From Escherichia phage ES, in sequence record OR466728.1: a stretch of DNA of 48,315 nucleotides; one strand, written 5' to 3'. The position numbers and the translations under genes were made by a program. Under the pieces are notes generated by a model, which saw nothing but the letters and a program-made list of their open reading frames with translations, did not search any database and had not been told where the DNA came from. This document shows, piece by piece, positions 48,005-48,315 of the stretch (its first letter is position 1; the number at the start of each line of letters is the position of its first letter).

Positions 48005-48160
48005 CTGCTTCCTCTGAGGACTTAGCAGTAACCGACGCGATAAATTCTTGAGTGCAACTTTTGCAACTACGACCCATTAATCGGATTGAAAGCTTAACAT
48101 CCCAGAGCTGCATTTTTTATCTTCCCGCTCTGATTGCTATAGTTTTGAATTTCTCTTTCA
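48005..48160. other. 156-nt fold-back: reverse complement of the end-to-start junction (probable assembly artefact)
   Basis: 48005-48082 is the exact reverse complement of 1-78; 48083-48160 is the reverse complement of 47929-48004 plus CC. Confidence 0.7.
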
Positions 48161-48315
48161 GGGGGGGGGGGGGGGGGGGGGGGGGGGGGGGGGGGGGGGG
48201 GGGGGGGGGGGGGGGGGGGGGGGGGGGGGGGGGGGGGAGGGGGGGGGGGGGGGGGGGGGGGGGGGGGGGGGGGGGGGGGGGGGGGGGGGGGGGGGGGGGG
48301 GGGGGGGGGGGGGGG
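48161..48315. other. poly-G tail (sequencing artefact)
   Basis: 155 nt of G with a single A at 48238. Confidence 0.85.

Follow-up and report, generated by a model that had tools for sequence, protein, structure and literature searches.

The 3' end of the Escherichia phage ES record as probable untrimmed k=77 assembly-graph edges appended to a circularly closing T1-like genome

The sequence record of Escherichia phage ES (OR466728.1), analysed here as a single window of 48,315 nt, is best explained, with a probability that we put at about 85%, as three separately emitted k=77 de Bruijn edges joined end to end, that is, as an artefact of assembly and concatenation. According to this explanation, the first piece (48,005 nt) would represent the genome of a T1-like coliphage, the second (155 nt) would be a short edge linking the end of the first piece to its start, and the third would be a loop on a poly-G vertex, formed by no-signal reads from a two-colour Illumina instrument with a sporadic A call. 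As graph edges have no fixed orientation, the linking edge would have been written out on the opposite strand and would for this reason read as a fold-back. The three edges or contigs would have been written consecutively by a submitter or by a downstream pipeline, with no overlap trimming and no gaps inserted, and the real genome would measure 48,006 bp and have neither a physical end nor a hairpin or G-tract here.

String comparison shows that positions 48005–48082 are the exact reverse complement of 1–78 (78/78 positions) and that 48085–48160 are the exact reverse complement of 47929–48004 (76/76 positions), with GG at 48083–48084 between the two inverted copies. An earlier note on this DNA had described the same layout, giving 48083–48160 as the reverse complement of 47929–48004 with CC added; this CC is the GG read on the other strand. 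Its view of the appended segment as the other strand of the end-to-start junction holds for the appended 156 nt, and its poly-G with a single A is found in the final 155 nt (48161–48315), which comprise 154 G and one A, at 48238. Both inverted pairs at the end were also recovered by a repeat search of the window, in which an inverted repeat of 82 nt (47929–48010/48079–48160) is listed. An exact inverted match of 78 nt cannot have arisen by chance in 48 kb. Elsewhere in the window, i.e., with the poly-G tail excluded, the longest homopolymer is at most 8 nt. An Rfam scan returned tRNA only, with no structured RNA at the window end, and IMG/VR searches gave 0 matches each for the chimeric join and the true junction, a result without bearing on provenance, and 0 for the poly-G piece (pattern G77-A-G79). 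The window as such matched no entry in the collections searched, which counts against the proposed explanation.

Base 48005 (C) can be assigned to the forward sequence as well as to the inverted copy, and the natural boundaries therefore lie between 48005 and 48006 and between 48160 and 48161. The window then splits to the base into 48,005 + 155 + 155 nt (1–48005, 48006–48160 and 48161–48315). When reverse-complemented, piece 2 is made up of the last 77 nt of piece 1, a C and the first 77 nt of piece 1, and among the values tried (k=70–84) it overlaps both ends of piece 1 exactly at k=77 only. Piece 3 reads G77-A-G77, with the A at its exact centre. Pieces 2 and 3 each measure 155 nt (2x77+1), with one distinguishing base in the central position. 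The parts of the proposed arrangement are listed below.

1–48005, + strand: piece 1, the putative main assembly-graph edge or contig, containing the whole genome minus one base; one added C closes the circle.
1–77, + strand: first 77-mer of piece 1, putative graph vertex N2, with a reverse-complemented copy at 48006–48082.
47929–48005, + strand: last 77-mer of piece 1, putative graph vertex N1, with a reverse-complemented copy at 48084–48160.
48006–48160, − strand: piece 2, the putative circle-closing edge N1 + C + N2 with untrimmed overlaps, by exact string equality.
48083, − strand: central base of piece 2, a C on the genome + strand at circular position 48,006 and the sole genuine genome base missing from piece 1.
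48161–48315, no strand: piece 3, G77-A-G77, the putative loop edge on the poly-G vertex, not phage DNA.

We modelled these pieces with a toy graph at k=77, consisting of a 48,006-bp circle with two alleles at the added base together with poly-G reads containing an occasional A. The long unbranched path of this graph measures 48,005 nt and is identical to window positions 1–48005; one 155-nt edge is the reverse complement of 48006–48160 and is accompanied by its allelic twin, and another 155-nt edge is identical to 48161–48315 and is accompanied by a G78 self-loop. Both appended pieces are like the bubble or bulge edges of de Bruijn graphs (2k+1 long, with an overlap of k with their neighbours) in their length, in the overlap of piece 2 with the main contig ends by 77 and in the central odd base of piece 3. 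Such edges are normally kept separate or removed, whereas those of the window are joined to the main contig, untrimmed and without Ns, and the partner allele that a bubble would supply for piece 2 is absent, neither a second allele nor a partner 155-nt edge being found within the window. SPAdes uses k=77 as its highest default setting with 150-nt reads, and its edges overlap by k; from k=77, SPAdes is most likely the assembler. Since the pieces stand in order of length and piece 2 could have been written in either orientation, the window appears to hold the records of a contig file written one after another, a concatenation step that we infer from the numbers alone.

The earlier note had instead invoked a chimeric read. 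The tail would then represent one genuine contig path via a strand-switching read and a signal-dead read, in which + strand position 48004 or 48005 is joined to − strand position 78 or 77, respectively, and poly-G is added after 47929 on the − strand. We regard such an origin as improbable. In its favour, a graph holding such reads can spell the string 1..48160, and inverted chimeras occur in amplified libraries. Poly-G read tails are likewise a known artefact (PMC6129281). However, in a single-path graph in which the odd joins of the window are supplied by chimeric reads, branching falls at vertex 2..78, the long edge measures 48,004 nt from window position 2 and the closing edge measures 156 nt, whereas the window starts at 1 and fits edges of 48,005 and 155 nt; with its contig start off by one base and its closing edge too long, this model was rejected. 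A chimeric origin would further demand three coincidences, namely that the strand switch skips exactly k+1 bases, that the poly-G begins exactly at a 77-mer boundary, and that the lone A has exactly 77 G on either side. At 311 nt, the tail is also longer than one 150-nt read, and ordinary reads of the two-colour Illumina instruments that produce poly-G fall short of that length. The fit of the edge model, together with the misfit of the chimeric model and the coincidences that it requires, argues for three separately emitted edges that were concatenated, and the breaks at 77-mer boundaries count against the chimeric read of the earlier note, which the edge model does not need.

A near-identical genome lacks the tail. 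Megablast of both ends against a phage collection returned a sole full-length match, 100% identical, to PP944860.1 (Escherichia phage AN_ECEAS; Drexlerviridae, Braunvirinae), which derives from waste water. Piece 1 plus one C, rotated to window position 4361, where the AN_ECEAS record starts, equals PP944860.1 at 48,002/48,006 positions (99.99%). Gene order is the same in both, and the junction is contiguous in AN_ECEAS within CDS 43616–43804; its record differs from the window in carrying a 75-bp direct end overlap in place of the inverted piece and the poly-G. When PP944860.1 was searched on both strands and across its own ends, neither odd join was found, and its longest G or C run is 6. 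As this genome contains neither the odd joins nor a long G run, the inverted piece and the poly-G are not part of the phage. The comparison also confirms circular closure, for which the earlier note had proposed a unit of about 48,004–48,006 bp, and places the unit at the top of that range, at 48,006 bp. The 'complete genome' of AN_ECEAS in turn repeats its own start (1–75 = 48007–48081), a remnant of assembly closure, and its true unit is 48,006 bp, not 48,081 bp.

Only four positions differ between the window and PP944860.1 (9636, 27989, 40431 and 40983), and all four differences are nonsynonymous. They correspond to G/W in a 146-codon frame (9636), K/N in an 844-aa tail fibre (27989), and D/N and Y/D in a 527-aa DUF3987 protein (40431 and 40983, respectively). 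Their nature suggests selection or laboratory adaptation between sister isolates. A literature search returned no paper on AN_ECEAS.

The contig break cuts a gene of 62 aa, the parts of which lie at opposite ends of piece 1.

47976–48004, + strand: 5' part of the 62-aa gene (MQLWDVKLSIRLMGRSCKSC...), from translation across the closed junction.
1–158, + strand: 3' part of the 62-aa gene, called as a 50-aa ORF at 6–158.

The 5' part runs through CC into the 3' part, and translation of the closed junction yields the 62-aa protein MQLWDVKLSIRLMGRSCKSCTQEFIASVTAKSSEEAVAKVKVMSGADPDYHKFLVAYVRERK. This gene is annotated in PP944860.1 as CDS 43616–43804, and the junction TCAAT-CC-GATTAATGGG is internal to that record at about 43,640–43,650 (longer context ...AGCTTTCAAT-CC-GATTAATGGGTCGT..., near 43,645). 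Phage Rao1 (PQ221054.1) gives one alignment, at 86% identity, that passes straight across the junction inside gp10. The inverted junction piece also makes a spurious 37-aa ORF (MQLWDVKLSIRLMGRSCKSC...; 48000–48113, − strand), in which the artefactual copy repeats the N-terminus of the real 62-aa gene. A single tRNA-Arg (anticodon CCT; 47676–47751, + strand) lies immediately upstream of the junction and is the most widely conserved stretch of the region among T1-like coliphages, with 97% in many records. Searches for the exact products of ORF 47783–47995 and of the small terminase found none on record.

Judged by its sequence, the phage is a T1-like member of the Drexlerviridae. T1-like Drexlerviridae are reported to be circularly permuted and headful-packaged (PMC7718038), and it is presumably because of this mode of packaging, with circular permutation and terminal redundancy, that the genome assembles as a circle. 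Circular closure of the assembly would be expected for such phages and does not imply that the virion DNA is circular. Directly past the junction lies the packaging module, with genes for the small terminase, an HNH endonuclease, the large terminase and the portal, and this context downstream of the break is consistent with packaging of the headful type.

283–807, + strand: small terminase subunit (Pfam GP3_package, 6e-12), annotated as terminase small subunit in relatives.
1330–2892, + strand: large terminase subunit (Terminase_6C), annotated so in PP944860.1.

The endonuclease gene between the two terminase genes (875–1351, + strand) encodes an HNH_3 homing endonuclease, an insertion that relatives share (gp12 in Rao1).

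Against this background, a real terminal structure, be it an N15-type hairpin telomere, protein-primed inverted terminal repeats or a genuine G-tract, appears extremely unlikely. The bare presence of the 82-nt inverted repeat and of a G run at the end speaks for it, and nothing more does; the likeness to N15-type hairpin telomeres is superficial and consists in an inverted repeat near the sequence end. The inverted segment, however, copies the end-to-start junction and not terminal sequence, and an end-symmetric hairpin is absent: what comes after position 48005 is the reverse complement of 77..1 rather than that of 48005..47929. In the case of an inverted terminal repeat, the copy of 1–78 would be misplaced, as 233 nt separate its last base from the 3' end. 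Neither a protelomerase nor a protein-primed DNA polymerase was found among the 70 annotated CDS and the large ORFs scanned with Pfam, and a DNA polymerase gene was neither annotated nor found in the scanned ORFs. The junction also interrupts a conserved gene, the family packages by headful (PMC7718038), and the inverted piece and poly-G are missing from the near-identical AN_ECEAS genome. The lack of a protelomerase or protein-primed polymerase, combined with the asymmetric fold-back, excludes hairpin telomeres and inverted terminal repeats, in agreement with the earlier note, which had seen no real telomere here. An invertible segment was also considered and was rejected on anatomy and gene content.

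In the toy model of the proposed graph edges, piece 2 is a separate edge only if a second allele, i.e., another 155-nt edge, is present, and a single-base variant at circular position 48,006 presumably kept it apart; AN_ECEAS and Rao1 both have C at this position. A simple SNP bubble is normally popped by the standard bulge removal of SPAdes, which would merge pieces 1 and 2; this speaks against the two 77-mers having persisted as branching vertices and hence counts against the concatenation of edges. One reading that is compatible with concatenated edges is that the pieces are artefactual but the site of the graph break is meaningful, marking a physical DNA end or a real polymorphism at circular position 48,006. 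We consider this unlikely in either of its two variants, the first being a pac or series-initiation (first packaging) cut at the break, some 280 nt ahead of the small terminase gene, and the second a stable two-allele polymorphism in the junction-spanning, Cys-rich 62-aa gene. The location of the break at this distance from the small terminase gene argues for it, being a coincidence of about 1% if break positions were random, as does the closing edge, whose length of 2k+1 is typical of an edge with a single-base difference in the middle. The four differences from PP944860.1 at other positions likewise indicate that close variants exist. On the other hand, in the related T1-like phage SU57, whose record begins at the inferred end, this region sits about 5.6 kb further in, for which reason we consider the break unlikely to mark the packaging start. 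The polymorphism is in turn at odds with the missing second allele in the window and the shared C of the two relatives, and a physical end alone cannot create both branches. If the reading were true, a site of packaging or of heterogeneity in a Braunvirinae phage would happen to be flagged by the artefact.

The third of the proposed concatenated edges has counterparts in other assemblies. In two-colour Illumina chemistry, the lack of a signal is called as G, and poly-G is common on NextSeq and NovaSeq instruments (PMC6129281). A scan of one genome per bacterial and archaeal species, for which the query was G77-A-G79 (157 nt) and not G77-A-G77, returned 56 stretches in unrelated assemblies. Stand-alone contigs of the form G(k)AG(k) are present in assemblies of Halorubrum, Paraburkholderia, Oceanobacter, Aphanothece and Microbacterium, among them G127AG127 in Halorubrum and Paraburkholderia and G121AG121 in Oceanobacter; further stand-alone contigs read G111AG111 and G118AG118 (Velvet-style naming). 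Many of the poly-G contigs carry SPAdes- or Velvet-style NODE names. These G(k)-N-G(k) contigs have the same symmetric build as piece 3 at other values of k, but they stand alone, whereas piece 3 is attached to phage sequence. By analogy, G77AG77 can be regarded as the k=77 member of a recurrent class of assembler leftovers from no-signal reads. The recurrence of such contigs in unrelated assemblies and the absence of the tail from PP944860.1 support the sequencer no-signal origin that the earlier note had proposed for the poly-G. Long poly-G or poly-C blocks were also observed inside some long-read contigs, e.g., in many copies in tig00023529 of Amycolatopsis plumensis.

Several features were observed elsewhere in the genome. 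A DNA helicase gene appears 'fractured' across 30372–33506 (+ strand). The ORF at 30372–31181 encodes the N-terminal portion of the helicase, with an intein N-fragment (DEC/CLTGDTMI..., the slash marking the fragment boundary; weak Intein_splicing match) at its end, and the ORF at 31797–33506, in the same frame, begins with an intein C-fragment (...GVVAHN/C) followed by Helicase_C. Between the helicase halves and in another frame, the ORF at 31010–31864 encodes a LAGLIDADG_2 homing endonuclease (1e-6). The arrangement resembles a split intein accompanied by a free-standing endonuclease, with a frameshifted intein as the alternative. In PP944860.1, the first helicase part is annotated as a hypothetical protein only and the middle is unannotated.

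A partly palindromic 18-nt motif, ATAGCACGAATTGCTAAA, is present in about 14 copies in the window, and 12 copies were counted at ≤3 mismatches compared with 0.05 expected. Positions of the copies are given below, with (−) for the minus strand.

2889, 11564, 22852 (−), 24965, 28756, 33924 and 34178: copies of the ATAGCACGAATTGCTAAA motif.
37746, 41213 (−), 42171 (−), 44012, 44523, 45199 and 46545: further copies of the ATAGCACGAATTGCTAAA motif.

Most copies are followed about 19–23 nt later by a TATAGT/TATAAT-like hexamer, the copy at 28756 being a clear exception, and the hexamer is followed by CATCGAAA, a GAGAG ribosome-binding site and ATG. The motif probably represents a phage-specific family of promoters or operators; its distance from the TTGCTA hexamer is greater than a standard −35 element would allow.

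A tail-fibre-like protein (6358–7851, + strand) contains long stretches of G-X-Y repeats of the collagen triple-helix type (Pfam Collagen, 7e-33) and also gave a weak match to CBM_5_12. The collagen repeats at 6685–7443 account for the direct-repeat families D1, D4 and D5. An AT-rich segment is present in two diverged copies (74–75%) located 20.1 kb apart, at 22931–23197 and 43051–43308, each with an 87-nt block containing TATATATATCAACC and (TTA)n and, about 210 nt downstream, a 53-nt block. Each copy is located in a long intergenic region that separates gene blocks transcribed divergently, and the two could represent regulatory or replication-origin regions.

The significance of the proposed concatenation is limited to data hygiene, the artefact being attached to an already known phage. 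Left in place, the tail breaks the 62-aa gene, simulates a hairpin of 82 bp and an inverted repeat near the terminus, and adds a 155-nt G-tract that might pass for a telomere or a G-quadruplex region. In other records, the same artefact can be recognized quickly by its 77/1/77 signature. For the phage itself, deletion of 48006–48315 (310 nt) and addition of one C would yield the 48,006-bp circular unit.
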